Source: Kofleriaceae bacterium (GTDB lineage Bacteria > Myxococcota_A > Polyangia > Haliangiales > Haliangiaceae). Taken from it: a DNA stretch of 64,000 nucleotides. Shown here one piece after another: positions 7,508 to 37,180 of this stretch. The notes under the pieces are model-generated. The model worked only from the letters and a program-made list of their open reading frames with translations. It searched no databases and was not told the DNA's origin. Location of the stretch: positions 160,001 to 224,000 of the forward strand of contig CBDCCZ010000006.1 of NCBI GenBank assembly GCA_965215005.1, written 5' to 3'. The translations under genes were made by a program, and so were the position numbers. How positions within the stretch are numbered: the first letter of the stretch is position 1; the number at the start of each line of letters is the position of its first letter.

Positions 7508-9184
7508 TCAGCTCGAGTTACGTACGTCTCTGCGCTGCGGCGCGGCTAGAATCGCGCGAAGCTGCCGTGCCTCCGCCGGCTTGGCGATATGCACGTCGAA
7601 CCCCGCATCCAGCGCCCGCGTTCTTTGGTCTAGCGCACTGTAGCCGCTCAGAGCGACCAAGATCATCCCACCGCACCCCGGGTCGAGGCGAACCCGGCGC
7701 GCGAGCTCGTAGCCTTCGATTCCGGGAAGGCCAAGGTCGACGAACGCCACCTCGGGCTTCCACTCTGTCAGGAGCAATAGCCCCTCAGTTCCGTCTGGGG
7801 CCGCACGCACCTCATGGCCCCACTGCTCGAGCATCATCGTGACGAGCTCGCGGGTATCGGCGTTGTCCTCGACCACGGCGACTCGCCTCGCAACCGTGTC
7901 GCCGATCTCCGGCGCCGCACTTTGCCGGCGCAGCCGCGCGCGTTCGGTCTCGAGCGGCAACTCGACAGCAAACACGCTGCCGTGACCGACTCCGTCGCTG
8001 TGCACGGATATATGGCCGCCATGGAGCTCCACCAATCGACGCGCCAGAGTCAGCCCAATTCCCAGCCCACCCGCACTTCGATCGATCGTCGCCTCGGCTT
8101 GCGTGAAGAGCTCGAAGATGTACGGCAGGACCTCTGCCGCGATGCCGACGCCATCATCGGTCACCGTTACGCGAGCCCGAGGAAGTGCACCATCCTCGCT
8201 GGTCACCACCGCCACTTCCACGACGATCGTTCCTTCAGCGCCGCTGTACTTGATCGCGTTGTCGAGCAAGTTGGTGAACACCTGTTCGAGTCGCGTCACG
8301 TCGCCGTCGATGACGAGGGGACCTTCAGGCCTCATAAGCTCGATGCAGCGACTACCATCACCGCCCACCACGCCGCTGCGGAAGTCCTGGCGTGGTTGGT
8401 TCGACGTCTCCTCCATCGCGCGTTGCTCTGCGAGCGCTTCAGGGTTTCTGCCGTGAGCCGTGAGCCGCTCACGCAAATTTACGATCAGGCGACTGAGCAG
8501 CTCACCGAGCTCGATGGGCTCTCGGCGCAGGACGATGCGGCCGCGGCTCACCCGCGACACGTCGAGCAAATCCTCAATGAGGCGCCCCAGTTGCCGGCTC
8601 TGCCGCTCGAGCGCATCGAGGCTCCGCTCTTCGATAGCGTCGCGGGCCGGGTGACGACGCAACAGCGGCACCGCCGCCGTAATGCTGGCAAGCGGGTTGC
8701 GGAGCTCGTGCGCTAGCATCGCGAGAAACTCGTCCTTGAGCCTATCTGCGTCGGCGAGTCGCCGCGCGCGATCGCGCAGCTCGCCTTCAGCGTCCTGCAA
8801 GCGAGCGAGCGAGCGCACAGTCGCGATGAGCTCCTCCGGCTCGAACGGCTGCGCCAAATAGCCATCGGCGCCAGCCTCGAGCCCTTCGACGCGCTTGTCT
8901 GCGGTGACGTAGGTGGCGGAGCTGTGCAGCACCTTGATGCGCTCGGTGTGCGAGTCGCTCTTGATCCGCCGGCACACCTCGAATCCGTCGATCTTAGGCA
9001 TGCGCACATCGAGCACCACGATGTCCGGTTGCGGCTCTTCATAGATCCGCACCAGCGCCTCGTCCCCCCCCACCGCTTCGACGACGCGAAAGCCGGCATT
9101 GCGAAGCATCTTCGAGACGAGGTAGCGGCTCGCGGGGTTGTCGTTGACGTTGAGGATGAGAAAGCGGCTGGTGTCGAGACTCAT
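7508..9184 (-). CDS. Hybrid histidine kinase REC-HisKA-HATPase-REC
   Basis: N-terminal REC (VLDVRMP), H-box AHELRNPL, N-box NLLDNAIKY, DDGVG, GLGIGL, C-terminal REC (FVDLGLP). ATG at 9184 overlaps the upstream stop (ATGA). Confidence 0.92.
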   Translation of the reverse strand: MSLDTSRFLILNVNDNPASRYLVSKMLRNAGFRVVEAVGGDEALVRIYEEPQPDIVVLDVRMPKIDGFEVCRRIKSDSHTERIKVLHSSATYVTADKRVEGLEAGADGYLAQPFEPEELIATVRSLARLQDAEGELRDRARRLADADRLKDEFLAMLAHELRNPLASITAAVPLLRRHPARDAIEERSLDALERQSRQLGRLIEDLLDVSRVSRGRIVLRREPIELGELLSRLIVNLRERLTAHGRNPEALAEQRAMEETSNQPRQDFRSGVVGGDGSRCIELMRPEGPLVIDGDVTRLEQVFTNLLDNAIKYSGAEGTIVVEVAVVTSEDGALPRARVTVTDDGVGIAAEVLPYIFELFTQAEATIDRSAGGLGIGLTLARRLVELHGGHISVHSDGVGHGSVFAVELPLETERARLRRQSAAPEIGDTVARRVAVVEDNADTRELVTMMLEQWGHEVRAAPDGTEGLLLLTEWKPEVAFVDLGLPGIEGYELARRVRLDPGCGGMILVALSGYSALDQRTRALDAGFDVHIAKPAEARQLRAILAAPQRRDVRNSS

Positions 9185-11211
9185 CCAGCCTCCTCTTCGA
9201 CCATTCCCGGCAATAGCCCCGCCTTGCCCAGCGCATCGCGAATTCGGTGTATCGCCAGCTCGCGTGACAGCGCTTCTTTGGACAACACGCCTTCGGTGCT
9301 CAGCTCGAGCTGTGCTCGTTGTGCCGGTTCCAATTCTTGGGCTGTGCAAATGATGACGGGTGTCGAGCGAGTGATGGGATCGGCTTTGAGCTCATCGAGC
9401 ACGTCGAAGGCAGTCACGTCCTCCAAAAGAAAATCCAGGAAGATGACCCCCGGCCGCTCATCTCGCGCGAGCCGCACGCCGAGCTCGCCATCGCCGGCTT
9501 CGATGACGTCGTAGCTGGTGCCCTCCAGGTGCTTGCGAAACAAGTAGCGCGCCGTGGGATCATCATCGATATAGAGGACCTTCGCGCGATGGCCCTTGTG
9601 GACCAACGCTGCGAGCTTGCGGATCAAGTGGTCCTGATCGAATGGCTTGAGCCAGAATTCGTCGGCGCCGAGCGCGCGCGCGCGACGCTCGCGATTGGTC
9701 ACCGTCACCACCAACACCGGGATGTCACGGGTGGAGACATCGGCCTTGAGCTGCGACAAGAATCGCCACGACGTGTCCTGCTCGAGCATGATGTCGAGTA
9801 CCACCGCGGCAGGACGGCGGCGGCGCAAGAGCCCCTCGGCTTCAGCAACGGTTCGGGCCGGCAGCACCTGAAAGCCCGCCATCCGCAAGAATCGCTCGTA
9901 CACCAGCATTGTCTTGCGATTGTCCTCGAGCACCAGCACCGGCGCTCTTCCCGGCTCTGGAAACTGCCCGCGCTCTTGCAGCTCATCGACGGCGCGCACC
10001 TCGGGATGTACCGCAGGAACAGTGACAGTAAACGTAGAGCCTCGCCCAAGCTCGCTCTGGACCGTGATGTCACCCCCGAGCAAATGGGCCAACTGTCGCG
10101 ACAACGACAACCCTAGCCCTGTCCCCGGCACCTCGCGGTGACGAGCGGTATCGAGCTGCACGAACTCCTCGAAGATTCGCTGCTGGTCCGCAATGCCGAT
10201 ACCGATGCCGCTGTCGCGAACCCAAACCGTGAGCTCACCATCCGCCGAGCCGCGAGCACCAACGCGCACCTCTCCTTTGCTGGTGAACTTGAGCGCGTTG
10301 GAGATGAGGTTGCGGAGGATCTGCGCGAGCTTGCCGCGATCGGTGCGCAGCTCGAGAACCGTCTCGGGTTCCTCGAACACCATCTCGACCGCGGAATCGG
10401 CCACTAGCGGGCGCATCATGCCACGCAGGGACAACAGGAAGTCCGCCAGATCGAGCTGCTCGACCTGAAGCCGCACCGTGCCGGAGTCGATCTTCGAGAG
10501 GTCGAGCAAGTCGCTTACCAGCTGCGAGAGCTCCGCTGCCGCCGATCGAATCAGCCCGACTTGCAGGAGCTGTTCGCTGTTGAGCGCGCCATCCGAGCCA
10601 TCGAGCAGCAGGCGCGAGAGCCCCAGGATCGAGTGGATCGGCGTGCGTAGCTCGTGGCTGACGTTGGCGACCATCCGCGTCTTGATCTCCGAGCTCTCCG
10701 CGAGCGACTCGTTCTTGTCCTCGATCTCCGCGTGCAGAGCGACCACGCCGCGGTGGGACTCATCGAGCTCTGCGTGCAAGCGAATGAGCTCCGCATTGCG
10801 CTGCTCGAGCTCGCGATTCTGCCGCGCAATCTCGCGATTGAGCTCGACGACCTCATCCATCGTTTGTCCAACGCGCGCCAACGCAGCGCCGTGGTCGTCG
10901 GGGATCAGGCTGCCGAGAATATCGATGCCGGTGGCGCTCGGAACGGCGGAGCACGAGACCACCGCAGGCCGGCCTTCGACGCAGAGAGGCAATTCCCAGC
11001 CAGTGACTTCGCCGACTCGAGCGCGCGCCAAGAACTCAGCAACCTTGCCTTCGCTGCCGCTTGGCGCCAACTTGCGCAGCGCCGTGCCGATATCGCTGCG
11101 CAAGTAACGACGCGCCCGCGGATCGAGCGCGGTGAGGGCGCCATCGGTATCGACCGAGAAGCGCATCTCACGGCTGAATCTATGCAACTGACGTTGCAGC
11201 GCATCGCTCAT
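9181..11211 (-). CDS. Hybrid histidine kinase (PAS-like?)-coiled coil-HisKA-HATPase-REC-REC
   Basis: SHELRTPI, NLISNALKF, DSGIG, GTGLGL; two REC domains (VLDIML, FLDFLL); no TM segment. Confidence 0.92.
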   Translation of the reverse strand: MSDALQRQLHRFSREMRFSVDTDGALTALDPRARRYLRSDIGTALRKLAPSGSEGKVAEFLARARVGEVTGWELPLCVEGRPAVVSCSAVPSATGIDILGSLIPDDHGAALARVGQTMDEVVELNREIARQNRELEQRNAELIRLHAELDESHRGVVALHAEIEDKNESLAESSEIKTRMVANVSHELRTPIHSILGLSRLLLDGSDGALNSEQLLQVGLIRSAAAELSQLVSDLLDLSKIDSGTVRLQVEQLDLADFLLSLRGMMRPLVADSAVEMVFEEPETVLELRTDRGKLAQILRNLISNALKFTSKGEVRVGARGSADGELTVWVRDSGIGIGIADQQRIFEEFVQLDTARHREVPGTGLGLSLSRQLAHLLGGDITVQSELGRGSTFTVTVPAVHPEVRAVDELQERGQFPEPGRAPVLVLEDNRKTMLVYERFLRMAGFQVLPARTVAEAEGLLRRRRPAAVVLDIMLEQDTSWRFLSQLKADVSTRDIPVLVVTVTNRERRARALGADEFWLKPFDQDHLIRKLAALVHKGHRAKVLYIDDDPTARYLFRKHLEGTSYDVIEAGDGELGVRLARDERPGVIFLDFLLEDVTAFDVLDELKADPITRSTPVIICTAQELEPAQRAQLELSTEGVLSKEALSRELAIHRIRDALGKAGLLPGMVEEEAG

Positions 11212-11288
11212 GTGACTGCCCCTCGCCTGCGTCGGCCATTCCAGAGGCCTATGATAAGGGACATGCCGGGACGGATCGGAAGAGCGTA

Positions 11289-11957
11289 TCAGCGATTATT
11301 TTTGATACGATCGGCCGCCACAGATAGCAGACGACAAGCCTGCGCCACGATGTCCTCTGCAGATCGGCCGATACCGTCCGCGCCGTAGTCTGCGGCCACC
11401 GCGCCAACGGGGAACGCTTGCCCCCCCACGAGGATCGGGCACGGATGCGCCAATGCCTCGCGTACGCATCGTGTCGCTTCGCGAACTCTACTGAGATGAA
11501 ACCCCATCGTCGCCGACAGCGCCAATAGGTCCGGCGGACGGCTGCGACACATGTCCGCGAGACTGCGACTCGGCACGTTCTCGCCCAGATAGGTCACCGC
11601 GAAACCGGCGAGATCGAGCGCGTCCGCGGCAAGCCGAGCCGGAAAACCGTGCAGCTCGCCCTCGACGCACGCCACTAGCACCGAACGCTGCAGCGCCGGA
11701 GCGGGCGTAGCGTGGCGATATAGGTAGCTAAGAGCCAGCTGCGAGATGGCGGTGGCCATGTGCTCATCAGCAACGCTGATGCGGTTCAGTTCCCAGAGTC
11801 GACCGATCTCCCGCTGCGCCTCGCCGATCACACCGGTCGCCACAGAGCTCACCGCGAGTCCCGCTTCGACACCTTCTTCAATGACGAGTCGCAGTGCCTC
11901 TTGGCGATCGCCAGCGAGCTGCGCGGCCACGAAACGCTCCCTAAGCTGGTCGATCAC
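11289..11957 (-). CDS. Stand-alone CarH-type cobalamin (B12)-binding domain protein
   Basis: W-x9-EH (WELNRISVADEH) and E-x-H-x2-P-x41-SAT-x27-GG; no HTH. GTG at 11957 lies 6 nt after TACAAT. Confidence 0.9.
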   Translation of the reverse strand: MIDQLRERFVAAQLAGDRQEALRLVIEEGVEAGLAVSSVATGVIGEAQREIGRLWELNRISVADEHMATAISQLALSYLYRHATPAPALQRSVLVACVEGELHGFPARLAADALDLAGFAVTYLGENVPSRSLADMCRSRPPDLLALSATMGFHLSRVREATRCVREALAHPCPILVGGQAFPVGAVAADYGADGIGRSAEDIVAQACRLLSVAADRIKNNR

Positions 11958-12202
11958 TGCTCTATTGTAGTGTGCGGTGGGCGTTGTGCAGCGGCGGCGT
12001 CGACCGCGACGACGGCGTCGCGCTTCTACGCATCGGCCGGCAGTGCAGAATTTGGGACGCCGATGGGTTTGGGGGCGAAGTCTCCAGCGCACCGATATCG
12101 AGACCACCCGCCGGGTGATCTCGGGGCCAGAACCTACGAAATTCGCGGCCTATGGCGGCGAAATCGAAGCTGGTGTCGAACGCTTACAGCGCCCGTGCCA
12201 TC

Positions 12203-12218
12203 CGGCATGGAGGCTGCA
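12203..12218 (+). promoter_or_regulatory. Putative sigma54 promoter of the NHL lipoprotein gene
   Basis: CGGCATG-GAGG-CTGCA. Confidence 0.45.
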
Positions 12219-12261
12219 TTTGTCGCGGCACAGGAGCTCTGACGGGCTCGCGGAGGCAGCC

Positions 12262-13383
12262 GTGCAGTATCTAAAATCATTGACAATTCTCTTCCTTTCG
12301 CTCATCGCGGCCTGTGGCAGCGACGGTGGGGGCTCTGACCCGGGAATCGACGCCGGCGGCACCGGTGGCACCGATGGTGGCGACGGTCCGGTGCAGGAGC
12401 CGCCGGGACCTTTGGCCGAGGGCGCGGCGACGCTCGCTGGAGGCCCGATTTCCGGCCGCGTCGATGGCGACCGCAACAGCGCCAGCTTCAACAACCCGGT
12501 CAATGTCGAGGTCGGCCCCGACGGCAACATCTACGTCGCCGATTTTGATAACGGGCTGCTGCGGGTGATCACGCCGCAAGGGACCGTTTCGACGCTAGCA
12601 CCGGCCGAAGCCGATTTCTCGCGGCCCTTCGGGCTAGCCTTCACACCCGACGGCTCGCTCTACGTGCAAACCGACCGAGACACCGGAGGGCAACTGAGTG
12701 GTGCGCTCTGGCGCGTCGATACCCAAACCGGCGAGGCAACGCTCGTGGAGGATACGGTCGGCCGTATGCGTGGCCTGGCCGCATTGCCCGATGGTCGACT
12801 CGTCATGGCGGAGTATCAGAAGCACGTCATCGTGGTGATCGACCCGGCAACCGGCGTGGTCAACACCATCGCTGGCGCCTACGACCAAATCGGCAACACC
12901 GACGGCGTCGGCGAAGCCGCTCGCTTCAACATTCCCTACGACCTCGTGCTGCACCCCGATGGCTATCTCGTCGTCGCCGACTACGGCAACAATCAACTGC
13001 GCCGCATCGACTTGAACGGCAATGGCCCGGCCGAGGTCACCACCTTGGCCGGCACTGGCATGGCCGGCGTGGTCGACGACACCTTGGCCGCGGCTGAGTT
13101 CAATCAGCCGCAAGGACTTGCCGTGGACGATGCTGGGATGCTCTACGTCACCGACAGCGCGGGGTTCGTGATTCGTCGCGTCGACCTCGCGGCGGACTCG
13201 GTGACGACGATCGCCGGGACCGGCGAAGCCGGATTTCGCGATGATGAGAATCCGCTTGCAGCACAGTTCTACGGGCTAGAAGGCATCGCTGTCGACGATG
13301 CCGGTACCTACCTCTATGTCGCCGACGGCAGCCGCGGCGAAGACGCCCGCTACCACCGCGTGCGTCGCGTGTCGCTCCCGTAG
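12262..13383 (+). CDS. NHL-repeat beta-propeller lipoprotein
   Basis: GGAGG SD and GTG at 12262; lipobox LIAAC; Gly/Asp linker; repeats FNNP/FSRP/FNIP/FNQP..G.LYVAD. Confidence 0.85.
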   Translation: MQYLKSLTILFLSLIAACGSDGGGSDPGIDAGGTGGTDGGDGPVQEPPGPLAEGAATLAGGPISGRVDGDRNSASFNNPVNVEVGPDGNIYVADFDNGLLRVITPQGTVSTLAPAEADFSRPFGLAFTPDGSLYVQTDRDTGGQLSGALWRVDTQTGEATLVEDTVGRMRGLAALPDGRLVMAEYQKHVIVVIDPATGVVNTIAGAYDQIGNTDGVGEAARFNIPYDLVLHPDGYLVVADYGNNQLRRIDLNGNGPAEVTTLAGTGMAGVVDDTLAAAEFNQPQGLAVDDAGMLYVTDSAGFVIRRVDLAADSVTTIAGTGEAGFRDDENPLAAQFYGLEGIAVDDAGTYLYVADGSRGEDARYHRVRRVSLP

Positions 13384-13441: not shown

Positions 13442-13783
13442 TCAACGGCTTTTGCGCCATGACGGCGGCGGCTGCAGAGCCTCCGTCGGCATGATCGCAA
13501 ACATCAGGAGCAGCAAGCCCAGCACGATGTGGTTCTGGTGGTAAGCCGGAATCGGGTATTCGTTGATTCGGCCGTAGGCGATTAGCCACAGAGAAACCGC
13601 CAGAGTCCCGAAGCGGGTCCAGCGCAGCGGCTGGTAAAACGTCGCAAGCGAGAAGACCACGATCAACGTCGCGCAAATGAAATCGTTGGCCCAAACGCTC
13701 GGCTGCGCGGCTGGCAGTGAAAAGATGAACGGGCTGAGGGCGAGCCAGATCCCCAGCATGGCTTCTACGACGCGGGGCCACAT
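13442..13783 (-). CDS. SPW-repeat-like membrane protein
   Basis: LGIWLALSPF motif and four hydrophobic segments; TGATG coupling to the upstream VKOR gene. Confidence 0.7.
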   Translation of the reverse strand: MWPRVVEAMLGIWLALSPFIFSLPAAQPSVWANDFICATLIVVFSLATFYQPLRWTRFGTLAVSLWLIAYGRINEYPIPAYHQNHIVLGLLLLMFAIMPTEALQPPPSWRKSR

Positions 13784-14397
13784 CAGGCACCTGCCTGTAG
13801 CGCCAACGCATCGGCGCGCTCGTCTCGCTGGCCCCAGAACACTCGCCAAACCAGTCGCGCGTCCCGGTGCTCTTTCCAAACTCGACGCAAATAGGCAAGG
13901 GTTGCCCATACCTCATCAGCAGCGAGCGGGATCAACACGGTCGAGATCGCTGCAGTGATCAGGCACAGAAAACACCACGACCCCACCACCAGCCCCTGCA
14001 CGAACACCAGCACAATGCTCACGATCCCAAGCGGGATGACGTCGATGCCAAAGATGATCACCATCCACGGCCGGTACTGCCAGCGCCTCGTTGAGCCGGC
14101 GAGACCAAAGATCGCATCGCCGAGATACGCGAGGGCTCCCAGCGCGGCGTCGGGTACGCCAATCCAACGATGCATCGTGCCGCTGGCGTCAGACTCGAGC
14201 ACGGTTCGCGTTCCGTCGCCAAACACCGGATCCCACACCGTCTCGATGAGCCCCCACTGAAAAAGGGCCAAGTACGTCGAAATGATCGCCCCCACCGCGG
14301 CCAGCACGCAGATCGGGATCCGCTGACTCCACGCGGAGGGATTGCGCGAAAACGGCGGGGCGTGGGCATCTAAACGAGAGTCGTCTGCGCGAGCCAT
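13783..14397 (-). CDS. Vitamin K epoxide reductase (VKOR) family protein
   Basis: [15 protein letters not shown] and the WCFLC CXXC in a TM helix; AAGGAG SD before ATG 14397. Confidence 0.85.
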
Positions 14398-14483
14398 CGA
14401 GGCGAGCTCCTTCATATTCGAACGGTTGTACGGCGACGCGAACGCCGTTGCAGCGTTGCATGATGGCTGGCAGCTCCCGCCAC

Positions 14484-14499
14484 TGGCACATGGTTCGCA
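14484..14499 (+). promoter_or_regulatory. Putative sigma54 promoter upstream of the glgE cluster
   Basis: TGGCACA-TGGT-TCGCA, about 330 nt upstream of glgE. Confidence 0.4.
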
Positions 14500-14828
14500 C
14501 GGCGATGCGCCCGTCACACCGGGAAGCGCTCGACCGGTGAGCGGTCGGTCAACCGCCGACCGCGAGCGGATCGGTTGCGATGGACAGCGAATGCGCGTGA
14601 CACGATGCTCGACCGGCGCTCCGGATGCTGACGCGATCAATATGAACGAGACGATCTGCCACGACCGAGTCAACACGACACGGACAACGCGCGTGCGAAA
14701 CGCGTATCAGACGTTCCATCACGCGAGCTCGCGGCTCGACGATGGCCGAGACATTTCATGGTCACGCGAGTGCGTCGTGCGCGACGCCAAGCTTGGCCAA
14801 GACTTTTGCTATAAGAGGACACACAGGC

Positions 14829-16838
14829 ATGCGGGGTGAAGGCAAAGCTATCGCTCTCGTCGCGGCTGAGCAGCAGGACTGGGATCCGGTGTTCATCGCG
14901 CGGCGCAGAATCGAGATTCTCGGACTCCATCCGGAGGTCGACGGCGGTCGCTATGCGGCCAAGGCCATCGCCGGTGCTGTCACCTATGTCGAAGCCGACT
15001 TGGTCGCCGACGGTCACGATCAAATGGCCGGCGTGGTGATGTATCGCCACGAGAACGAGCGCGAGTGGCGCGAGGCGTCGCTTTCGTCGCTCGGCAACGA
15101 TCGTTGGCGTGCCGAGCTGACGCTGCACGAGCTCGGCCGCTGGCGGTATGCCGTGGAAGGTTGGATCGATGCTTTCGCGACCTGGCGGCGCGGCTTTCAC
15201 CTCAAGGTAGAAGCGGGCATCGACGTGAGCGTCGAGCTGCTCATCGGCAGTGAGCTCGTCGCGGCAGCGGCCGCTCGCGCGAGTGGACCCGCTCGGCAAC
15301 GCCTGGACGTGATCGCCCGCGACCTGCAAAGCAACGCTCCCACGCACGCGCGCATCGACGCGGCGCTCGACCCCGAGCTCGCCCGTCTGATGATGCTATG
15401 GCCCGACCGCAGCCTCTCGACTCGATCCCCCGATCGCGTGATTTTCGTCGAGCGCCCGAAGGCGCGGTTCTCGGCCTGGTATGAGTTCTTCCCGCGCTCG
15501 TTTGGGCCCAATGGCAAACACGGCAGCTTCCGAGATGCCGAGAGCCACCTGCGCTACGTCGCGGGGCTCGGTTTCGATGTGGTGTACTTGCCGCCGATTC
15601 ATCCTATAGGCCGTCTGCACCGCAAAGGGCGCAACAACACGCTCGACGCTCAGCCCGACGATCCCGGCAGCCCGTGGGCCATCGGCTCCAGCGAAGGCGG
15701 CCACACAGCGATCCATCCGCAGCTCGGCACTCTCGCCGATTTTCACCACTTTCTCGCCGCCGCCAAAGACCTCGGGCTAGAGGTCGCTATCGATGTCGCC
15801 TTTCAGGCAGCGCCCGATCACCCATGGGTAAAAGAGCACCCGGAGTGGTTCATCCAGCGCCCGGATGGTTCTATTCAGTATGCGGAGAATCCGCCAAAGA
15901 AGTATCAGGATATCTATCCTATCAACTTCAACAGCGAGGACTGGCGCGGCCTCTGGAACGAGCTGCTCGGAGTGTTCCTGTATTGGCTCGAGCAGGGTGT
16001 TCGCATCTTCCGCGTCGACAACCCGCATACGAAGTCCCTGCGTTTTTGGGAGTGGTGCATTGCGCAGGTAAAGCAGCGTGATCCGGGCGCCATCTTCCTT
16101 TCTGAGGCCTTCACCCGGCCCAAGCTAATGTACGCCCTCGCCAAGCTGGGCTTCACCCAGTCGTATACGTATTTCACTTGGCGACACACCAAGGCAGAGT
16201 TCGTCGAGTATCTCACCGAGCTAACGAAGCCAGAAATCGCCGCATTCTTTCAGCCCAATTTCTGGCCTAACACTCCAGACATCTTGCCAGAAGACTTGCA
16301 AAGCGGCGGTCGGGCCGCGTTCCTTGGCAGGTTCGCCATGGCAGCCACGTTGTCGCCGAGCTACGGAGTCTACGGCCCTGCGTACGAGCTGCTCGACAGT
16401 ATTCCGCGGCCCGGCTCCGAAGAGTACATCGACAACGAGAAGTATCAGCTGAAGCAGTGGGACCTGGAGCGGGGCGACAGCCTGCGCCACTTCATGGCCC
16501 GCATCAATCGCATTCGCAAGAACAACCCCGCCCTACACGACAATCTCTCTCTGCGCTTCCACAAAACCGACAGCGATCAGCTGCTTTGCTACAGCAAGCA
16601 GACACGCAACCGCGATAACACGATTGTCATCGCGATCAATCTAGATTGGCATCATCGACACGGCAGCCGCGTCTGGCTGGATCTCGAGCAGCTGGGCCTG
16701 GACTGGAACGCAACCTACGACCTTAACGACTTGATCGATGGCAGCCGCTACACGTGGCATGGCACGGAGGGATACGTGGAGCTCGATCCGCATATCATGC
16801 CGGTGCACGTGTTTCGGCTCGAGCCTCGAGGAGGTTAG
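14829..16838 (+). CDS. glgE: Alpha-1,4-glucan:maltose-1-phosphate maltosyltransferase (GH13_3)
   Basis: WYEFFPRS, YLPPIHPIG, YAENPPKKYQDIYP, FRVDNPHTK, EAFTRP, NTPDIL. Confidence 0.96.
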   Translation: MRGEGKAIALVAAEQQDWDPVFIARRRIEILGLHPEVDGGRYAAKAIAGAVTYVEADLVADGHDQMAGVVMYRHENEREWREASLSSLGNDRWRAELTLHELGRWRYAVEGWIDAFATWRRGFHLKVEAGIDVSVELLIGSELVAAAAARASGPARQRLDVIARDLQSNAPTHARIDAALDPELARLMMLWPDRSLSTRSPDRVIFVERPKARFSAWYEFFPRSFGPNGKHGSFRDAESHLRYVAGLGFDVVYLPPIHPIGRLHRKGRNNTLDAQPDDPGSPWAIGSSEGGHTAIHPQLGTLADFHHFLAAAKDLGLEVAIDVAFQAAPDHPWVKEHPEWFIQRPDGSIQYAENPPKKYQDIYPINFNSEDWRGLWNELLGVFLYWLEQGVRIFRVDNPHTKSLRFWEWCIAQVKQRDPGAIFLSEAFTRPKLMYALAKLGFTQSYTYFTWRHTKAEFVEYLTELTKPEIAAFFQPNFWPNTPDILPEDLQSGGRAAFLGRFAMAATLSPSYGVYGPAYELLDSIPRPGSEEYIDNEKYQLKQWDLERGDSLRHFMARINRIRKNNPALHDNLSLRFHKTDSDQLLCYSKQTRNRDNTIVIAINLDWHHRHGSRVWLDLEQLGLDWNATYDLNDLIDGSRYTWHGTEGYVELDPHIMPVHVFRLEPRGG

Positions 16839-16847
16839 CGACGACTC

Positions 16848-19800
16848 ATGGTCAGGCACTCAAAGGACCCTCAGGTTCTGCTCGCGGACGATCCGCTCTG
16901 GTACAAAGACGCTCTCATCTATGAGATTCACGTTCGAGCATTCTCGGACTCCAACGGCGATGGCATCGGCGACTTCAACGGATTGGTCAGCAAGCTCGAC
17001 TATCTGCAAGATCTCGGCGTCACAGCACTATGGCTGCTGCCGTTCTATCCGTCGCCGGGACGCGACGATGGCTACGACATCGCCGATTACACCGACGTAA
17101 ACCCCTCGTACGGAACGCTGGCCGACTTTCGGCGTTTCTTGAACGAAGCGCATCGTCGCGGCTTGCGGGTCATCACCGAGCTCGCCATCAATCATACGTC
17201 CTCGGAGCACCCGTGGTTCCAGCGCGCTCGCCGCGCGCCTGCGGGGAGCCGGTGGCGCAACTTCTACGTGTGGAGCGAATCGCCAGAGCTGTACCGCGAT
17301 GCCCGCATCATCTTTCCCGACTTCGAAACGTCCAACTGGACGTGGGACCCGATCGCCAAGTCCTACTACTGGCACCGCTTCTACTCGCATCAACCCGACC
17401 TCAACTTCGAAAACGAAGAGGTTCACGATGCGGTCATCTCGGTGCTCGACTTTTGGATGGATCTGGGCGTGGATGGGATGCGGCTCGACGCCATTCCCTA
17501 CCTATACGAACGGGAAGGTACGAACTGCGAGAACCTGCCCGAGACGCATCAGTTTCTCAAAAAGCTGCGCGCGCACAACGACGAGAAGTACCGCAACCGG
17601 ATGTTCCTGGCCGAAGCCAATCAGTGGCCGGAGGACGCCGCTTCGTACTTTGGTGATGGCGACGAATGCCACATGAACTTTCATTTTCCGCTGATGCCGC
17701 GGATGTTCATGGCAGTAAATCTGGAGTCGAGTTACCCGATTCTCGATATCCTCGAGCAGACGCCGGAGATCCCCGAAAACTGCCAGTGGGCACTATTTCT
17801 CCGCAACCACGACGAGCTCACGCTGGAGATGGTCACGGATGAGGACCGCGACTATATGTGGCGCGTCTATGCCGAGGACCCGCAGGCGCGCATCAACCTG
17901 GGAATCCGTCGGCGGCTCGCGCCGCTCCTCAAGCTACGGCGCAAGATCGAGCTCATGCACGGTCTCTTGTTCTCACTGCCGGGGACCCCGGTTCTCTATT
18001 ACGGCGACGAGATCGGGATGGGCGACAACATCTATCTCGGCGACCGCGACGGCGTGCGCACGCCGATGCAGTGGAGCTACGACCGCAACGCCGGCTTCTC
18101 GCGGGCCAACCCGCAGAAGCTGTTTTTACCCGCGGTCATCGACCCCGAGTACCACTACGAAGCGATTAATGTCGAGGCGCAGCAGAACAACGCCCAGTCG
18201 CTCTTGTGGTGGGTCAAACGTCTCATCTCGTTGCGCAAGCAGCACCAGGTGTTTGGCCGCGGGAGCATGCGCTTCTTGCGACCGGACAACCCCAAGATCT
18301 TGGCATTCGTGCGCGAGCTCGACGACGACCGGGTTCTGGTGGTGGCGAATCTGTCACGTTTTGCCCAGGCCGGTAAGCTCGACTTGAGCGGCTACGAAGG
18401 CCTTATTCCAATGGAGATGTTCGGGCACTCGCCATTTCCGCGCATCAACGAACAAGAGCCTTACTTCTTAGCGCTCGGTCCACACGAGTTCTACTGGTTC
18501 GAGCTCACGGAAGAAGACACCGCCAGCCAGACGCCACACGCCGAGCTGCCGCGCCTAGACGCACCTCAAGGTTGGGAGACGCTGCTCAGCGGCCAAGGAG
18601 ACCTCGAGCGAGTGCTAGCGACGTACCTGCCGACCTGTCGCTGGTTCCGCGGCAAAGCGCGACGTATCTCGAAAGTAAGGCTCACGGAGGCGGTGCCGCT
18701 AGAAGGCGCCAGTGGTGCTCAGCTGGCGTTTGTGCGGGTTGATTACGTGCAGGAAGACCCGGAGACGTATCTCCTGCCGCTGGCGCTCGCGGACCTCGAG
18801 ATGGGGCAGAAGCTGATTGAAGATCAGTATCAAGCAACCATCGCTCGGGTCGCAATGGGTGATGAGAGTGGTGTCCTCTACGATGCGAGCTACTCCGATA
18901 CGTTTGCGCGCGACCTGCTGGCTCTCTTTAGCAACAAGAACCATCCGCGCGGCAGCGACGGGGAGATCAGCGCCACTGGGTTTGCTGCGCTCCAGGCGCT
19001 AACCAGCGAAGGTCTAGCAGCCCTTTCGCCTAAGCGCTCCACGGCTGAGCAATCCAATACCAGCATCATCTTTGGCGACGAGCTCATCCTCAAGCTCACG
19101 CGCGTCGTCGAATTTGGCTCGCAACCCGAGATTGAGATTGGCCGCTTCTTGACCGAGAAGGTCGAGTTCGAGCACGTCCCACCGCTCGCCGGCGCTATGC
19201 ATTACGAGCGCGGCAGCGAGCAGGCCGTTATCGGAGTGGTCCAGGGTTTCGTCGACAATCAGGGCGATGCGTGGGCCTTCACCCTCGACTCGCTGAGTCG
19301 CTTCTTCGAGCGTGCGCTCAGCTATCAAGAGCACCCAACCGAGCTGCCCATTGGCGCCGACTCGCTCATGGCGCGTGCTCGTCTAGACGTTCCCGACGTT
19401 GCCAAGGATACCATCGGCGGCTATCTCCCCTTGGCGCGCATCTTAGGAGAACGCACCGCGCAGATGCATCTCGCCCTTGCCCGCGGCGATCTCGACTCAA
19501 CGTTCGCGCCGGTCGCGCTGTCCACGCTGCACCAGCGTTCGCTATATCAGGCGGCGCGCACCACGTTGAATCGCGGCTTCGAGCTCCTCGAGTCGCGCCG
19601 GCGCAAGGTGCCCGAGCGCTGGCAGTCACTGGTCAAGGAAGTGCTGAGCAACAAGGATCGTCTTGATGAACAGCTGAGGTCGATCACGGGGACCAAGATC
19701 GAAGCGGCTCGGATCCGCACCCATGGCGACTTCCATCTCGGTCAGGTGCTGTACACCGGTGGCGACTTCGTCATCATCGACTTCGAAGGAGAACCAGCGC

Positions 19801-20171
19801 GTCCACTGGGTGAGCGCCGCATCAAGCGGTCGCCGCTTCGCGACGTGGCTGGCATGCTGCGATCGTTTCATTACGCGGCGATGCTGGCCTCCCACGATCC
19901 GCACTGGCCAGCCGACAAGCAAGACGCCGTCGAGCGATGGTCCACCTTCTGGCACTCCTGGGTGACAGCGCAGTACCTACGCGCCTATCTCGAAGTGACA
20001 GGCGGCAGTGGCTTGGTGCCAGCGTCCGATGAGCAGCTGGCCGCATTGCTCGACTTCTATCTCGTGGACAAGTGCGTCTACGAGCTTTCCTACGAGCTAG
20101 GTAGTCGGCCGGAGTGGGTGTGGATTCCGCTCATGGGGCTCCTGGACATCTTGAAAGCCAAGGGACAATGA
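16848..20171 (+). CDS. treS: Trehalose synthase fused to maltokinase (TreS-Mak/Pep2)
   Basis: GH13 motifs [21 protein letters not shown]-terminal kinase motifs [20 protein letters not shown]. Confidence 0.95.
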
Positions 20172-22177
20172 CAACCCATACGAATCAACGAACCCACACG
20201 AGTGCAGCCGATCGCTCACGCGAGCGAAGCAACTCGAATGGGGCAGCCAAGGTAGTGCACGGGCCGACCCTTCTCGGCGACCAAGACCTTCATTACTTCA
20301 ATGAAGGCACTCATGCGCGCATGTATGAGCACCTGGGCGCGCATCTTCGCAGTGAGAAAGGCAAGAGCGGCTGTCAGTTCGGCGTCTGGGCTCCTTCGGC
20401 CGAATCAGTGAGCGTGATCGGCGACTTCAATGGGTGGGATGCCGCCGCTACGCCGCTTGCCGTGAAGGGCTCCTCGGGCATCTGGGAAGGCTTCGTACCC
20501 GGAGTGGAGCGCGGCGCCACTTACAAATATCACGTGGTATCCCGCAACGGCGGCTACACCGTCGACAAGATGGACCCCTATGGACTGTTCCATGAGCATC
20601 CACCACGCACCGCGTCCGTGGTCTGGGATCTAGATTACGAATGGGAAGATAAGACTTGGATGCAGGGCCGTGGTGAGCGCCACAAGCTCGACGCGCCCAT
20701 GTCGATTTATGAGGTCCACCTCGGTTCTTGGCGCCGCGATCCCGACGACCCCGAGCGGTTCCTCACGTATCGCGAGCTCGCTCCCCTGCTCGCCGATTAC
20801 GTCTCCTATCTAGGATTCACTCACGTCGAGCTGCTACCGGTGATGGAGCATCCGTTCTACGGCTCGTGGGGCTATCAAGTCACCGGCTATTTCGCCCCCA
20901 CCAGCCGCTACGGCAATCCTCAAGACCTGATGTACCTGATTGACTATCTGCATCGCGCCGGCATTGGCGTGCTGCTCGATTGGGTACCCGCGCACTTCCC
21001 CTCGGATGAGCACGCTCTTGGCTACTTCGATGGTACTCACGTCTACGAGCACGCCGATCCGCGCCAAGGCTTTCATCCTGACTGGAACTCGCTCATCTAC
21101 AACTATGGCCGCAATGAAGTGCGCAGCTTCTTGCTCTCGAGCGCCATCTTCTGGCTCGACAAGTACCATATCGATGGTCTGCGGGTGGACGGCGTGGCGT
21201 CCATGCTCTACCTCGACTATTCGCGGGCCGCGGGAGAATGGATACCCAATGAATTCGGCGGTCGGGAGAACATTCCCGCCATCGACTTCCTACGCCAGAT
21301 GAACACCACGGTGTTCAAAGAGTTTCCCGACACCCAAACCATCGCGGAGGAGTCGACAGCTTGGCCAATGGTATCGCGGCCAACGTACACCGGCGGGCTC
21401 GGCTTTGGCATGAAATGGGACATGGGGTGGATGCACGACACACTCCAGTACTTGAGCAAAGACCCCATCTACCGCCGCTATCACCACGGTGACGTCACGT
21501 TTCGCGGCGTGTATGCCTTTCACGAGAACTTCGTCTTGCCGCTGTCGCATGACGAGGTGGTGCACGGCAAGGGCTCTTTGATCAACAAGATGCCGGGGGA
21601 TGAATGGCAGAAGCTTGCCAACCTTCGGCTGCTCTACGCCTATATGTGGGCGATCTCGGGCAAGAAGCTGCTCTTCATGGGCGGTGAGTTCGGTCAGTGG
21701 CGCGAGTGGCAGCACGACAACAGCCTCGATTGGCACCTCACTCATTCGGAGGGCCACCGCGGGCTGCAGAGCTTGGTGTCGCAGATAAATCGCCTCTATC
21801 GCGAGAAGCCGGCCCTGCACCGCGACGTCGAGCCGGAAGGGTTTCGATGGATCGATGCCTCCGACTTCGAGCGCAGCATCTATATCTTCGAGCGTAGCGG
21901 TCGTCGCGGCGAGAAGCTCCTCTGCGCGCTCAATGCCACTCCAACGCCGCAGTACAACTACCGCGTCGGAGTGGATCGCATGGGTTACTGGCACGAGCTT
22001 CTCAACACCGATGCCCGCGAGTTCGGTGGCTCCGGCCTCGGCAATTACGGCCGCGTCGAGGCGCATCCTGTTTCATGGCAGGGGCAGCCGTTCTCGATCA
22101 CGCTCACGCTGCCGCCACTGGCCGCGATCTGGCTGGAAGCGCCAACGGCCGAAGGAGATGGCGCGAGCGAAGCGTAA
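20168..22177 (+). CDS. glgB: 1,4-alpha-glucan branching enzyme (GH13)
   Basis: [41 protein letters not shown] overlap with treS; short N-terminus. Confidence 0.96.
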
Positions 22178-22223
22178 TCCCGGCGCAGCCGCTCTTGTGT
22201 CACCACCCGGCTTACCAAGAGCC

Positions 22224-24665
22224 ATGAACCGCTACGTCTGCATTCACGCTCACTGCTATCAGCCGCCGCGCGAGAATCCGTGGCTCGAGGAAATCGAGCA
22301 GCAGGACTCGGCGTATCCCCATCACGATTGGAATGAGCGGGTCAACGCCGAGTGCTACGCGCAGAACGTCGCGTCGCGGATTCTCGATGCGCGCGGGCGG
22401 ATCGCTCGCATCCTCAACAACTTCTCCCGCATCAGCTTCAACATCGGGCCAACGCTGCTGTCGTGGATGGAGCACCACGACCCGGACACCTATCGCGGAA
22501 TCTTGCGCGCCGACCACGAGAGCCGTGAGCGCTTCGGTGGTCACGGCAGCGCAATTGCTCAAGCGTACAACCACATGATTCTGCCGCTCGCGAACGAGCG
22601 CGACAGACACACGCAAGTGCGCTGGGGTATCGAAGACTTCATCCACCGGTTCGGTCGCCGCCCGGAGGGGATGTGGCTTCCCGAGACCGCGGTGGATCTG
22701 GCGACGCTCGAGGTGTTGGCCGAGAACGAGCTGGCTTTCACGATACTCTCGCCGTATCAGGCCAAACGGGTCCGAAGGCGCGGCGAGACCGACTGGCTCG
22801 ACGTGGCAGGAGGCCGGATCGATCCATCGCAGGCGTATCTCCATTCGTTACCCTCGGGACGAAGCATCGCGGTGTTCTTCTACGATGGTCCGGTGGCACA
22901 AGCGGTGGCGTTCGAGCGTTTGCTCGATAGCGGCGAGCGTTTCGCCCAGCGTCTCGAGGGCGGGTTCTCCGAGCGCCGCAAGTGGCCCCAGCTCATGCAC
23001 ATCGCCACGGATGGCGAGAGCTACGGCCATCACCACCGCAGCGGCGAAATGGCCCTCTCCTATGCCCTCGACCTCATCGACCGCGAGAAGCGCGCCGAGA
23101 TGACCATCTATGGCGAATATCTCGAACGGCATCCGCCGACCCACGAGGTCGAGATTCTCGAAGACACCGCGTGGAGCTGCTCGCACGGCGTCGGGCGCTG
23201 GCGAGAGAGCTGCGGCTGCAACACCGGCGGTCAGCCTGACTGGTCGCAAGAGTGGCGTGGCCCGCTGCGAAAGGCGCTCGATTGGCTGCGAGATGAGCTT
23301 GCCACTGCCTATGAACGAGCCGCCGCCGACCTCTTCATCGATCCGTGGGCGGCACGGGACGCGCTGATATCGGTGCTGCTAGATCGTCGCCGTCAAGCCG
23401 TGGAAGCGTTTCTCGCAACCCACCAACGCCGACCGTTGACCGGCGAGCAGCAGCGTCGAGCTCTGATGCTGCTAGAGATGCAGCGCCACCTCATGCTCAT
23501 GTACACGAGCTGCGGCTGGTTCTTCGACGATCTCTCCGGCATCGAGACGGTCCAGGTTATTCAATACGCCGGTCGCGCCGTTCAGCTCGCCGAGTCGCTG
23601 TTTGGCAGCCAGCTCGAGGAGAGCTTCGTCGGCAGACTGGCGCGCGCTCGCAGCAACCTCCCAGCGTGGCGAGACGGGCGAGCCATCTATGAGAAGAACG
23701 TCAAGCCGGCGATGGTCAATCTCACCAAGGTGGGTGCTCACTACGCCATTAGCTCGCTGTTTCAGGACTATCCCCAGCGCGCCCGAATCTACTGCTACGA
23801 CGTCGAACGGCAAGCGGAGGAGAGTTACACGCTTGGGCGGATGAAGATGTTGGTTGGGCGCGCGCACATCGCTTCGACCATCACCTGGAACGACACCGAT
23901 CTCGCCTATGCGGTGCTCCACTTTGGCGACACCCACGTTCTTGGTGGTGTTAGCGAGGGACTTGACGACGCCGCGTGGGAAACGATCACGTCCACGTTGA
24001 TCAACGCCTTCATGCGCTCCGACGTGACGCAAATGGTCCGCATCTTCGATCGCCATTTCACCGAGCAGTTCGCCTTGCCTTCGCTGTTCCGCGACGAGCA
24101 ACGCAAGGTGCTTCGGCAGCTCATCGACAGCACGGTCGACGAGGTCGATGCCGCCTATCAGGCCATCTACCGCAACAACGCCCCGCTGATAGCCTTCCTA
24201 ACTGCGAGCAACATGCCGGTGCCACGCCCGCTGCGGACCGCTGCGGAGCATGCGCTCACCGCGCAGCTCGAGCGCGCCTTCGACGACGATGACCTCAATC
24301 GCGACGATATCGAATCCATACTCACCGACGCTGCCGAGCGCTGCGTGCAGCTCGATGAGCCGACGCTGCGATTCACGCTTCAGCAGCGTATCGAGCGCGA
24401 AGCCCAGAGGCTAGCAGAAGACCCGCTCGAGATGCGGCTGCTGGCGCGACTCCGCGCGGCGGTGGATATAGCCGGCCTCACCTCGTTTGGTGTGGAGCTC
24501 TGGAAAGTTCAGAACATCTATTGGGAGCTTCTCAGACAACGGTTTACGGACCAGCGTGCGCGCGCTCAGGCAGGCGACGATGACGCTACCGCGTGGTGCC
24601 AAGACTTCCTAACGCTCGGCGATCAGCTTCGTGTGAGCTTCGCCTGCGAGGACCATCATGAGTGA
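22224..24665 (+). CDS. GH57 family glycoside hydrolase with DUF3536
   Basis: HAHCYQPPRENPW, WLPETAVD, ATDGESYGHH, MYTSCGWFF. Confidence 0.9.
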   Translation: MNRYVCIHAHCYQPPRENPWLEEIEQQDSAYPHHDWNERVNAECYAQNVASRILDARGRIARILNNFSRISFNIGPTLLSWMEHHDPDTYRGILRADHESRERFGGHGSAIAQAYNHMILPLANERDRHTQVRWGIEDFIHRFGRRPEGMWLPETAVDLATLEVLAENELAFTILSPYQAKRVRRRGETDWLDVAGGRIDPSQAYLHSLPSGRSIAVFFYDGPVAQAVAFERLLDSGERFAQRLEGGFSERRKWPQLMHIATDGESYGHHHRSGEMALSYALDLIDREKRAEMTIYGEYLERHPPTHEVEILEDTAWSCSHGVGRWRESCGCNTGGQPDWSQEWRGPLRKALDWLRDELATAYERAAADLFIDPWAARDALISVLLDRRRQAVEAFLATHQRRPLTGEQQRRALMLLEMQRHLMLMYTSCGWFFDDLSGIETVQVIQYAGRAVQLAESLFGSQLEESFVGRLARARSNLPAWRDGRAIYEKNVKPAMVNLTKVGAHYAISSLFQDYPQRARIYCYDVERQAEESYTLGRMKMLVGRAHIASTITWNDTDLAYAVLHFGDTHVLGGVSEGLDDAAWETITSTLINAFMRSDVTQMVRIFDRHFTEQFALPSLFRDEQRKVLRQLIDSTVDEVDAAYQAIYRNNAPLIAFLTASNMPVPRPLRTAAEHALTAQLERAFDDDDLNRDDIESILTDAAERCVQLDEPTLRFTLQQRIEREAQRLAEDPLEMRLLARLRAAVDIAGLTSFGVELWKVQNIYWELLRQRFTDQRARAQAGDDDATAWCQDFLTLGDQLRVSFACEDHHE

Positions 24666-27246: not shown

Positions 27247-27280
27247 CCGCCCGCTCCTGCAACTCGGGACGGTGTCTTCG

Positions 27281-29149
27281 ATGAAGCCCGGCGGCCTAGA
27301 CATAGCCGACCACGGCGTCATCGGCGATCGGCGGTCGATTGCGCTGGTCGGCACGGATGGCACGATCGACTTTCTCTGTTACCCGAGCTTTGACTCCCCA
27401 AGCGTCTTCGCTAGCCTTCTCGACGACGAACGCGGCGGCAGCTTTGCCGTTTATCCAGAGCTTCCCGACGCCCGCCGGCAACAGTTCTATCTGCCCAACA
27501 CCAACGTGCTGCTCACCCGCTTTCTCGCCGAGGAAGCCGTTGCTGAGCTGTCGGACTTCATGCCAGTGGGGGACCGCTGGGCTCCCCGCGATTCAGTGAT
27601 CGTCCGCCAGGCGCGCGCTGTTCGCGGCGAGATCACGTTTCGGTTGCGGCTCCAACCAGCCTTCGACTATGGCCGTGCTCAACACCGCGTGCACCGCGAT
27701 GGCAAGCATCTCATCTTCGAATCCCGCGCCGGTGATGGCTTAGCCTTGCGGCTGCGCTCCTCTCATCCGTTGAAGATCGATGGTGCTGCTGGCATCGCCG
27801 AGCTCGATCTCGCCGCCGGTGAGACGGCGACCTTCGTGCTCGAGCGCGCGAGCGAGGAGAACGATTCCCCCTTCGACTCCGCCAGCGCCGTCGAAGAAGC
27901 CTTCGCAGACACTGTGCACTTCTGGCGCCGCTGGATTTCGCGCTCGACCTATCAGGGACGCTGGCGCGACCGCGTGCATCGGTCCGCGCTCCTGCTCAAG
28001 CTCCTGCAGCACCACGATAGCGGCTCGCTCATTGCGGCCCCGACCTTCGGTTTGCCCGAAGAAATTGGTGGGATGCGCAACTGGGACTATCGCTATACCT
28101 GGCTCCGCGATGCATCATTCACGGTGCAGGCGCTCAGTCAGCTTGGCATCGTCGAGGAGTCGCATCGCTTCATGGAGTGGCTTGAGCAGCGATGTCTGGA
28201 GGTCGATCCTGGCCAGCCACTGGCGGTGCTCTACACCACCGCGGGTGGGACGTGCGTGAAAGAAGAGACGCTCGACCACTTTCGCGGCTATCGCGGCTCG
28301 ACTCCGGTGCGAATTGGCAATGCCGCGGCTGGACAGCTGCAGCTCGACATCTATGGCGAGCTCTTCGACGCGCTGTGGCAGTACAGCGCCCAGGGCTTTT
28401 GTCAATATCATCAGGTGTGGTCGCGGCTCGAAGAGATCATCAACTGGGTTTGCGACAATTGGCGTCGTGAAGATGAAGGCGTATGGGAGACCCGCGGCGG
28501 GCGTCATGAGTTCGTGCAGTCGCGATTGATGTGCTGGGTCGCTCTCGACCGCGCGCTCAAGCTCGCTGATCGCGAATCAAAGCCCGCTCCTCGACAACGC
28601 TGGTTAGAGACCCGCGACGCGATCTACCATGACCTCCACGCCCGCTTCTGGAACGAGCAACTCGGCGCCTTCATGCAGTATCCCGGGGCTAACCGCCTCG
28701 ACGCCGGATGCTTGCTCATGCCGCTCGTCGGTTTCATCAGCCCGACGGATCCTCGCTGGCTATCGACCCTGCGTCGAGTCGAGGACGAGCTTGCGGTCGA
28801 TGAGCTCGTCTACCGCTATCGCGCCCACGACCGTGAAGAGTGGTCCGATGGACTCGAAGGCCAAGAAGGCACCTTTTCCATCTGCACCTTTTGGCTCGTG
28901 CAGTGCCTGGCGAGAGCCGGCGAGCTCGATAGAGCGCAGTTGGCATTCGAGAAGATGCTCGCCTACGGCAATCACGTCGGCCTCTACGCAGAGCAGCTCG
29001 GCCGCCGCGCCGAGCACCTCGGCAACTTTCCCCAAGCGCTCACCCACCTCGGGCTCATCAACGCGGCTATCGATCTCGACGCTCGCCTGAATGCCTCGAG
29101 GTCGCCCATGGAAGAGGCTCATCGTCGCCCGAGCGTCGAGATGCGATAG
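27281..29149 (+). CDS. GH15 glucoamylase/trehalase-like glycoside hydrolase
   Basis: AAPTFGLPE, RNWDYRYTWLRD, QLDIYGE, EGVWE, GNFPQALTH. Confidence 0.92.
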   Translation: MKPGGLDIADHGVIGDRRSIALVGTDGTIDFLCYPSFDSPSVFASLLDDERGGSFAVYPELPDARRQQFYLPNTNVLLTRFLAEEAVAELSDFMPVGDRWAPRDSVIVRQARAVRGEITFRLRLQPAFDYGRAQHRVHRDGKHLIFESRAGDGLALRLRSSHPLKIDGAAGIAELDLAAGETATFVLERASEENDSPFDSASAVEEAFADTVHFWRRWISRSTYQGRWRDRVHRSALLLKLLQHHDSGSLIAAPTFGLPEEIGGMRNWDYRYTWLRDASFTVQALSQLGIVEESHRFMEWLEQRCLEVDPGQPLAVLYTTAGGTCVKEETLDHFRGYRGSTPVRIGNAAAGQLQLDIYGELFDALWQYSAQGFCQYHQVWSRLEEIINWVCDNWRREDEGVWETRGGRHEFVQSRLMCWVALDRALKLADRESKPAPRQRWLETRDAIYHDLHARFWNEQLGAFMQYPGANRLDAGCLLMPLVGFISPTDPRWLSTLRRVEDELAVDELVYRYRAHDREEWSDGLEGQEGTFSICTFWLVQCLARAGELDRAQLAFEKMLAYGNHVGLYAEQLGRRAEHLGNFPQALTHLGLINAAIDLDARLNASRSPMEEAHRRPSVEMR

Positions 29150-29187
29150 AGTCGAAGGTGGTCGCTCGAACGCGACTCCCTCGACTC
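29149..29187. terminator. Hairpin between the convergent GH15 and SDR genes
   Basis: GAGTCGA...TCGACTC outer stem and GTCGC/GCGAC inner stem. Confidence 0.5.
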
Positions 29188-29203
29188 GTTTACCCCGCCG
29201 ACG

Positions 29204-30067: not shown

Positions 30068-30080
30068 GGGCAATTGCGGC

Positions 30081-30096
30081 AGCAGGGAGTGTGCCA
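30081..30096 (-). promoter_or_regulatory. Putative sigma54 promoter (near-leaderless) of the SDR gene
   Basis: TGGCACA-CTCC-CTGCT, ending 13 nt before the ATG. Confidence 0.6.
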
Positions 30097-30243
30097 GCAC
30101 GACATTTTTGGGCAGGACCGAGGGCGCGAGCGGCGCGAGCCGATGCGTCACGACGAGGCGTGATGGTACGCGTCACGACGTCGGTGTTCTTCAATAGGCA
30201 AACAGCATGCTCCTACGTCCGCGACAGCGTCCGCTCCGCCGTG

Positions 30244-36487: not shown

Positions 36488-37180
36488 GTGAGCCGCGGTG
36501 CAGGTAAACCAACGTTGGCCGCTACCTGTAGCCGCGGCGTTTGCGCCTCGACGAGCACGGGGCAAACCGCCGCCTTGGCCGACGCGATGCGTCTAGCAAC
36601 CGCCGCACATCACGCGCGCGCCGAACGAGCCGGCTTAATGCATCGCATCCTGCATCGGTCGTTCTCCGCGGCCGAATACGCGCGCCTGCTCGCTTCGCTG
36701 CTGCCCGTGTATCAGTCGCTCGAGGTCGGCCTGGCGACACATCACGCGCTATTCCCTGCGCTGCCGCTATCGCGGCTCGCGCGTAGCGCCGGTCTCGCTG
36801 CCGACTTGGCGTTCTTTGCGCGCCGCGTCGGCCGGCCCGCGCTCCCAGCAGCTACGGCCAAAGGCTATGCGGCATGCATCGACGATATCGCCGCCACTGA
36901 GCCAGCGCTGCTGCTCGCCCACGCGTACGTGCGGTTTCTCGGCGACGTCTCTGGCGGCCAAATCCTTGGCAGTGTCGTCGCGGATCATCTCGAGCTACCC
37001 GACCGTCAAGGCCTGCAATTCTATCGGTTCGATGATCCCGCCGGGTTGCGCGTCGAGCTGCGCGACGCGGTGCAGCACGCGCCTGTAGACGCTTCGCTGC
37101 ACGCCGCGCTATGCGCGGAGGCCGAGCGGGCGTTCGAGCTCAACATCGCGATGTTCGTCGAGCTCGATACCCACACGTGA
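36488..37180 (+). CDS. Biliverdin-producing heme oxygenase (start uncertain)
   Basis: T...H..AE proximal His helix, AHAYVRFLGDVSGGQIL, EA..AF.LN. Confidence 0.85.
   Translation: MSRGAGKPTLAATCSRGVCASTSTGQTAALADAMRLATAAHHARAERAGLMHRILHRSFSAAEYARLLASLLPVYQSLEVGLATHHALFPALPLSRLARSAGLAADLAFFARRVGRPALPAATAKGYAACIDDIAATEPALLLAHAYVRFLGDVSGGQILGSVVADHLELPDRQGLQFYRFDDPAGLRVELRDAVQHAPVDASLHAALCAEAERAFELNIAMFVELDTHT

Follow-up and report, generated by a model that had tools for sequence, protein, structure and literature searches.

A gene for a stand-alone cobalamin (B12)-binding protein, located upstream of the genes of two hybrid histidine kinases (kinase 1, K1, and kinase 2, K2), was analysed in a 64,000-nucleotide (nt) stretch of a Kofleriaceae bacterium genome (GenBank assembly GCA_965215005.1, contig CBDCCZ010000006.1, positions 160,001 to 224,000), which is referred to below as the window and whose numbering is used throughout. 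By homology, the B12 protein belongs to a split photocobilin, of which it is the B12 half that stayed with the kinases, and K1–K2 is a derivative of the kinase pair encoded after RsbRSTX stressosomes, in which the RsbT-like N-terminus of K1 was swapped for a PAS domain. We consider it reasonably probable that this B12 half, which likely binds adenosylcobalamin (AdoCbl), likely docks on the PAS and coil of K1 and would switch K1 upon photolysis of the Co–C bond. The three genes, all on the minus strand, and the relevant parts of K1 are as follows.

11289..11957, minus strand: stand-alone photocobilin-type cobalamin-binding protein, 222 amino acids (aa), with a four-helix cap and a Rossmann domain.
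9181..11211, minus strand: K1, 676 aa, with PAS, coiled coil, HisKA (H186), HATPase_c and two receiver (REC) domains (D473 and D593).
10897..11211, minus strand: K1 residues 1-105, a PAS fold whose subfamily recurs behind photocobilin genes; the B12 protein is predicted to dock here.
10657..10896, minus strand: K1 residues 106-185, predicted to form a long helix/coiled coil that links the PAS and the His box; stressosome-output kinases share the second half of it.
7508..9184, minus strand: K2, 558 aa, with an atypical REC (D59, N14, Gln for Lys), HisKA (H159), HATPase_c and REC (D483).

The B12 gene has an intact reading frame that starts with GTG. Its product carries W55-x9-E65-H66 and E101-x-H103-x2-P-x41-S-x-T-x27-GG179, which confirms within 11289-11957 the first-pass annotation of a stand-alone protein of about 222 aa with the full signature at the spacing given there; a Pfam search yielded only B12-binding_2 (residues 5-79) and B12-binding (92-202), in agreement with the earlier statement that the chain has no DNA-binding domain, and found no globin domain in its 222 aa. 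The light-responsive cobalamin-domain signature of SignatureFinder is also present (G52xxW55, E65-H66, G100xxH103, G125xxxP129), and its GxxW, EH, GxxH and GxxxP elements are kept in 41-42 of the 42 aligned homologues. None of the 42 deviates at the AdoCbl-capping residues, the fourth cap helix is highly conserved within the clade, and the residue after W55 is Gln in 35, Glu in 6 and Ser in 1 of the aligned sequences, never the His of the CarH type. The end of the feature had previously been placed at 11969, i.e., 12 nt upstream of the likely start of the gene. The hexamer TACAAT, six bases before the GTG (11958-11969, minus strand), was not seen as a conserved feature in relatives; its position suggests that the transcript of the B12 gene may be leaderless.

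Both by sequence and by model, the closest PDB matches of the B12 protein are the photocobilins SasPcob/AbPcob, and the characterised SasPcob and AbDPcob (PMC10979010; PDB 8J2W, 8J2X, 8J2Y) share with it the AdoCbl-capping motifs and the lack of a His after the Trp, whereas the match to AerR is far weaker (E 5e-4). The CarH framing of the first-pass annotation held for the W-x9-EH and E-x-H motifs, which are shared with CarH of Thermus and Myxococcales, but it proved too narrow, photocobilins being closer and a bilin-binding globin being the usual companion. Identity with CarH was ruled out (49 bits against a cut-off of 400, no MerR-type DNA-binding domain and no His after the Trp, in contrast to the bis-His light state of TtCarH), and so was an MtbC-like methyltransferase corrinoid protein (39 bits against a family cut-off of 350). 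The window gene is the sole close B12 homologue in the genome; a canonical CarH (MerR and B12 domains) is encoded in a carotenoid cluster on another contig (L082:5520-6443, contig C42 of G000).

The gap of 77 nt between the stop codon of the B12 gene and the ATG of K1 (11212-11288) and the description of K1 and K2 as two co-directional, translationally coupled hybrid kinases stand as first annotated, both frames being intact and the ATG of K2 overlapping the stop of K1 by 4 nt. Likewise, neither an Hpt nor an output domain was found in K1 or K2 by Pfam, and three Hpt domains over the cut-off are encoded elsewhere in the genome, in frames of 725-999 aa. The count of four receivers was also reproduced by Pfam, with the qualification that the N-terminal one of K2 is atypical: D59 and S89 occur in 64 of 64 orthologues and the acidic-pocket Asn in 63, and the catalytic Lys is replaced by Gln, Glu or His in all 64. 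H186 of K1 is present in 78/78 orthologues, its receiver Asp and Lys in 76-77 of the 78 and H159 of K2 in 64/64, in sets that include close kin and some duplicates. The earlier reading of the kinases was incomplete in missing the N-terminal PAS of K1, which Pfam does not recognise: in the model, residues 1-105 adopt a PAS fold, and the 80 residues after it form a helix in which R126 and Q131 are highly conserved.

The ancestry of the pair was traced through the N-terminal 200 residues of K1, whose next relatives, after ~55 full-length orthologues, are kinases that begin with an RsbT-like domain (PF13581). Three annotated plasmid records contain an overlapping gene pair directly after rsbR-rsbS-rsbT-rsbX that is matched by the coil of K1 and the receiver of K2, and the second genes of these pairs likewise lack the receiver Lys. 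A tree of 63 kinase cores places 25 PAS-type and 25 RsbT-type sequences on one side of a 98/93 branch and 13 other kinases of the source genome on the other side; within the PAS/RsbT group, an 87/94 branch separates off the PAS-type rows, which suggests that the PAS-type kinases are nested within the RsbT-type ones. The pair resembles the kinases downstream of RsbRSTX in Deinococcus MP1 and Variovorax (output modules of this kind are discussed in PMC9237108) in its tandem overlapping arrangement, its coiled coil and its Lys-less N-terminal receiver, and differs in having a PAS in place of the RsbT-like domain and in the absence of rsbRSTX: tblastn gave no match for RsbR, RsbS, RsbT or RsbX in the 93%-complete genome. 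In four Nannocystis loci (L023, L024, L034, L039), RsbR-like STAS genes lie a few kb past the kinase pair.

The PAS of K1 belongs to a subfamily that recurs behind B12 modules. A profile search of 1.84 billion representatives with the K1 PAS gave 216 hits, and the distant members, which match the K1 PAS at 99.3%, start other kinases, GGDEF, GGDEF-EAL and STAS proteins. The profile built from these distant members, chosen without regard to their neighbours except for one seed, matched 4 of 401 genomes of the same phylum and 7 of 301 of another. All eight independent strong hits (window and seed excluded; two phyla) lie directly behind a globin-B12 gene, and the six such genes of the second phylum that were checked contain GxxWx9EH; one weak hit was left (E 1.6e-6, with no other hit in that genome), and it corresponds to the N-terminal PAS of PpsR, again behind a B12-domain gene. 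One protein, P0200 (E 2.5e-15), fuses globin, B12 domain, PAS and kinase. The PpsR-CrtJ family TIGR02040 was matched by 5 of 14 distant members (best 3.5e-6; P0358, positions 5-101), and no other family was matched twice among the 14. The distant members resemble the N-terminal PAS of PpsR, and homology between the PAS of K1 itself and PpsR would be indirect, i.e., transitive only. A B12-domain gene followed by ppsR was seen in a genome of the same class (L193:5292-8426, G210); both are regulators known from photosynthesis gene clusters.

Conservation of the three genes as neighbours was found in several gene orders. An orthologue of K1 occurs in 41 of 80 B12 loci, 40 of which also hold K2, with the B12 gene upstream, downstream or divergent; among the remaining 39 loci, several are short contigs or represent another type of fusion. 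Starting instead from K1, at least one gene of the module accompanies it in 23 of 35 metagenome loci, and the B12 gene does so in 17; in eight loci, the B12 gene stands directly before K1 and the globin is absent from the locus. Another eight of the 35 are too short or end just after K2. Among 147 genomes of the order, the B12 clade is present in 15 and the K1 PAS in 15, with both in 14 (this count leaves out three weaker B12 hits, which are of other types and include one from an unpublished genome). Within the family, the order heme oxygenase-B12-globin plus K1-K2 is found in 11 of 12 loci (two repeat earlier loci). Furthermore, six proteins fuse a B12 or globin-B12 part ahead of a kinase other than the PAS-kinase of P0200. 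The first-pass proposal of in-trans regulation of the kinases by the B12 protein gains from this linkage, the co-occurrence in genomes and the natural fusions; in the phosphorelay proposed there, which remains putative in its order of transfer, one of the four receivers is atypical.

In its relatives, the B12 gene is accompanied by a globin, often by a heme oxygenase and sometimes by a bilin reductase (36, 17 clear cases and 4, respectively, among the 41 K1-linked loci), and the more distant B12 homologues are globin-B12 fusions. The globin profile matches the bilin domain of photocobilins (E 3.7e-6), and the Asp and Trp positions that bind bilin are conserved in it. In the source genome, an RGMC-motif globin (C2:3383-4096), homologous to that of SasPcob, and a ferredoxin-dependent bilin reductase are side by side on contig C2, a PduO-type adenosyltransferase is encoded, and the window itself contains a possible source of biliverdin for the B12/globin system:

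36488..37180, plus strand: heme oxygenase, the sole one found in the genome, about 24.5 kb from the B12 gene.

A cluster of B12 protein, BBAG-2 globin and pre-2 pre-PcyA has been described in Myxococcales (PMC10151467). The source genome resembles it in its globin and bilin reductase on C2 and its sole close B12 homologue in the window, and differs in that the three-gene cluster is split; kinases are unmentioned alongside the cluster in the accessible part of that report, and Chondromyces apiculatus, studied there, has a K1 orthologue. Two further arrangements were observed: the B12 gene of L117:7633-8255 (G498) is divided between two frames, and the heme oxygenase, globin and kinases look intact; in L183, L184, L185 and protein P0220, from genomes without the close globin, a second, divergent globin type is fused to or adjoins a heme oxygenase.

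Signature, fold, linkage, kinase ancestry and the recurrence of the PAS behind B12 modules are read from sequence, and from cofactor binding onward we infer the following steps. In the dark, the B12 protein would be an AdoCbl-bound dimer, probably joined by the C2-encoded bilin-binding globin, which would add red-light sensitivity. It would contact the K1 PAS and the following helix in the manner of AppA, which uses its B12-like domain to bind the long helix that follows the N-terminal PAS in PpsR, and of AerR, which was modelled on the same helix through its fourth cap helix (PMC9144470). Photocobilins provide precedents for dimer release driven by photolysis, for red-light coupling via biliverdin and for in-trans control of an enzyme (PMC10979010). 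Docking or photolysis would alter autophosphorylation of H186, the phosphoryl group would pass to the receivers of K1 itself, K2 would be controlled via its atypical N-terminal receiver, and the output regulator would be encoded elsewhere, unlinked to the locus. By analogy with AbDPcob, the better guess is that K1 would be inhibited in the dark and activated by light.

Several observations weigh against this proposal. The counts of linked loci overstate independence because many of the 41 are close kin, 12 of them from Corallococcus species. Four long metagenome loci (L143, L151, L156 and L161, three of which were placed in the tree and form one clade) have K1-K2 without any gene of the module nearby; one genome (G427) has the B12 gene and globin, with K1 not found, and one of the order (G448) has K1, with the B12 gene not found. 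A PAS of the K1 subfamily was not found near 42 other B12 loci, and of 14 genomes with no K1 in the B12 locus, only 7 had a K1-type PAS elsewhere. With respect to PpsR, only 1 of the 41 K1 PAS sequences matched TIGR02040 (E 0.065), a profile comparison against one PpsR reached 36%, and the solved PpsR did not appear among the matches retrieved. Finally, no conserved output gene was found among the neighbours of the kinase loci, and BBAG-2 globins were photoinert on their own (PMC10151467). As a separate observation, K2 has an extra PAS-like insert in the two of the four long loci that were read fully.

The same wiring could carry another signal, i.e., cobalamin, bilin/heme or oxygen status, with photolysis being incidental. 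The heme oxygenase and bilin reductase genes of the kinase-linked loci, the photoinert BBAG-2 holoproteins, the heme bound by the homologous domain of AppA (PMC9144470), oxygen as the input of the ancestral stressosome in Vibrio (PMC9237108) and the presence of a separate CarH in the same genome are all in line with this explanation, but it is unlikely given the invariance of the AdoCbl-capping residues and the photoactivity of all four signature-bearing proteins tested (PMC11796333). It is less likely still that the genes are merely co-regulated or belong to one pathway without direct contact, the PAS of K1 binding a small ligand of its own. The kinase pairs without a B12 gene in the four long loci, the pair unlinked from the B12-globin cluster in G545 and the ligand-binding domains among the nearest PAS structures fit such an arrangement; however, the PAS subfamily stands after B12 modules with a range of output domains (other kinases, GGDEF and STAS), it is joined to globin-B12 in the one fusion with a kinase, and the K1 PAS has no invariant Cys or His fit for flavin or heme. 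In addition, the conserved PAS motif is degenerate in the B12-less L161, which is one case.

Contact of the globin, rather than the B12 protein, with the kinase, or a complex that works only with all three parts, would agree with the globin being in most kinase-linked loci and being kept on C2 of the source genome. This is the least probable of the explanations: the B12 gene stays beside K1 without the globin in the window, the eight metagenome loci mentioned above, L016, L025, L049 and L053, the search for a close globin gave weak or no hits in four of five genomes of this kind, and the two genomes with the globin only (G424 and G449) have no K1. Switching of K1 by photolysis of AdoCbl in the docked B12 protein is the reading retained here.

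Compared with photocobilins, the system differs in having B12 protein and globin as separate genes on different contigs, with a predicted in-trans two-kinase output in place of their fused diguanylate cyclase. The AerR/PpaA-CrtJ/PpsR and AppA-PpsR systems (PMC9144470; PDB 4HH3 as described there) likewise combine a cap-plus-Rossmann module acting in trans on a protein with a PAS and a long helix; their target is a repressor, whereas a kinase is concerned here, and the B12 protein is much closer to photocobilins. Stand-alone photoglobins next to B12 domains and two-component genes have already been predicted (PMC8717448); in the accessible part of that report, the partner domain and the kinase ancestry of these photoglobin-B12 multi-kinase operons are unnamed. 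The stressosome graft and the partner PAS appear to be new: nothing was found in the literature covered (subscription papers lay outside it) on a kinase pair of stressosome origin, on the partner PAS subfamily or on kinases as the output of the pre-2 cluster, and no characterised B12-gated histidine kinase was found there. According to PMC10979010, it is unclear which natural partners stand-alone photocobilins have, and the route from stressosomes to such downstream kinases is described as unresolved (PMC9237108).

Elsewhere in the window, an NHL-repeat protein gene (11977-13383, plus strand) is divergent from the B12 gene, and a pair of SPW-repeat and VKOR genes lies at 13442-14676 (minus strand). 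By eye, the run at 14742-32503 presumably encodes GlgE, TreS, GlgB, a glycoside hydrolase, TreY, a short-chain dehydrogenase and a PfpI-like protein. Genes of the GlgE/TreS/GlgB/TreY type are typical of general stress regulons, and this run would suit a stressosome-derived pathway; its genes are not among the recurring neighbours of the kinase loci. Judging from motifs, two Hsp70-like genes presumably stand in tandem at 57386-62712 (plus strand), preceded by a small conserved gene.

More tentatively, and with rather more doubt than confidence on our part, the PAS-plus-helix family, including the N-terminus of PpsR/CrtJ, might be a general docking element through which B12 photoreceptors act in trans on kinases, cyclases and STAS proteins. 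In myxobacteria, this element would have been grafted onto stressosome output kinases, so that an AdoCbl protein, a bilin-bound globin and a kinase replace the whole stressosome with green- and red-light input; if true, this would assign a signalling output to the orphan pre-2 pre-PcyA cluster. The locus offers a small soluble pair, i.e., the 222-aa sensor and the 185-aa N-terminus of K1, with structural precedent for the contact site, and genetics is possible because cultured genera (Corallococcus, Archangium, Nannocystis and Chondromyces) carry the system. Should switching of K1 by the photolysed B12 protein hold, myxobacteria would possess a B12 light pathway separate from CarH, based on a two-part green-light kinase switch.

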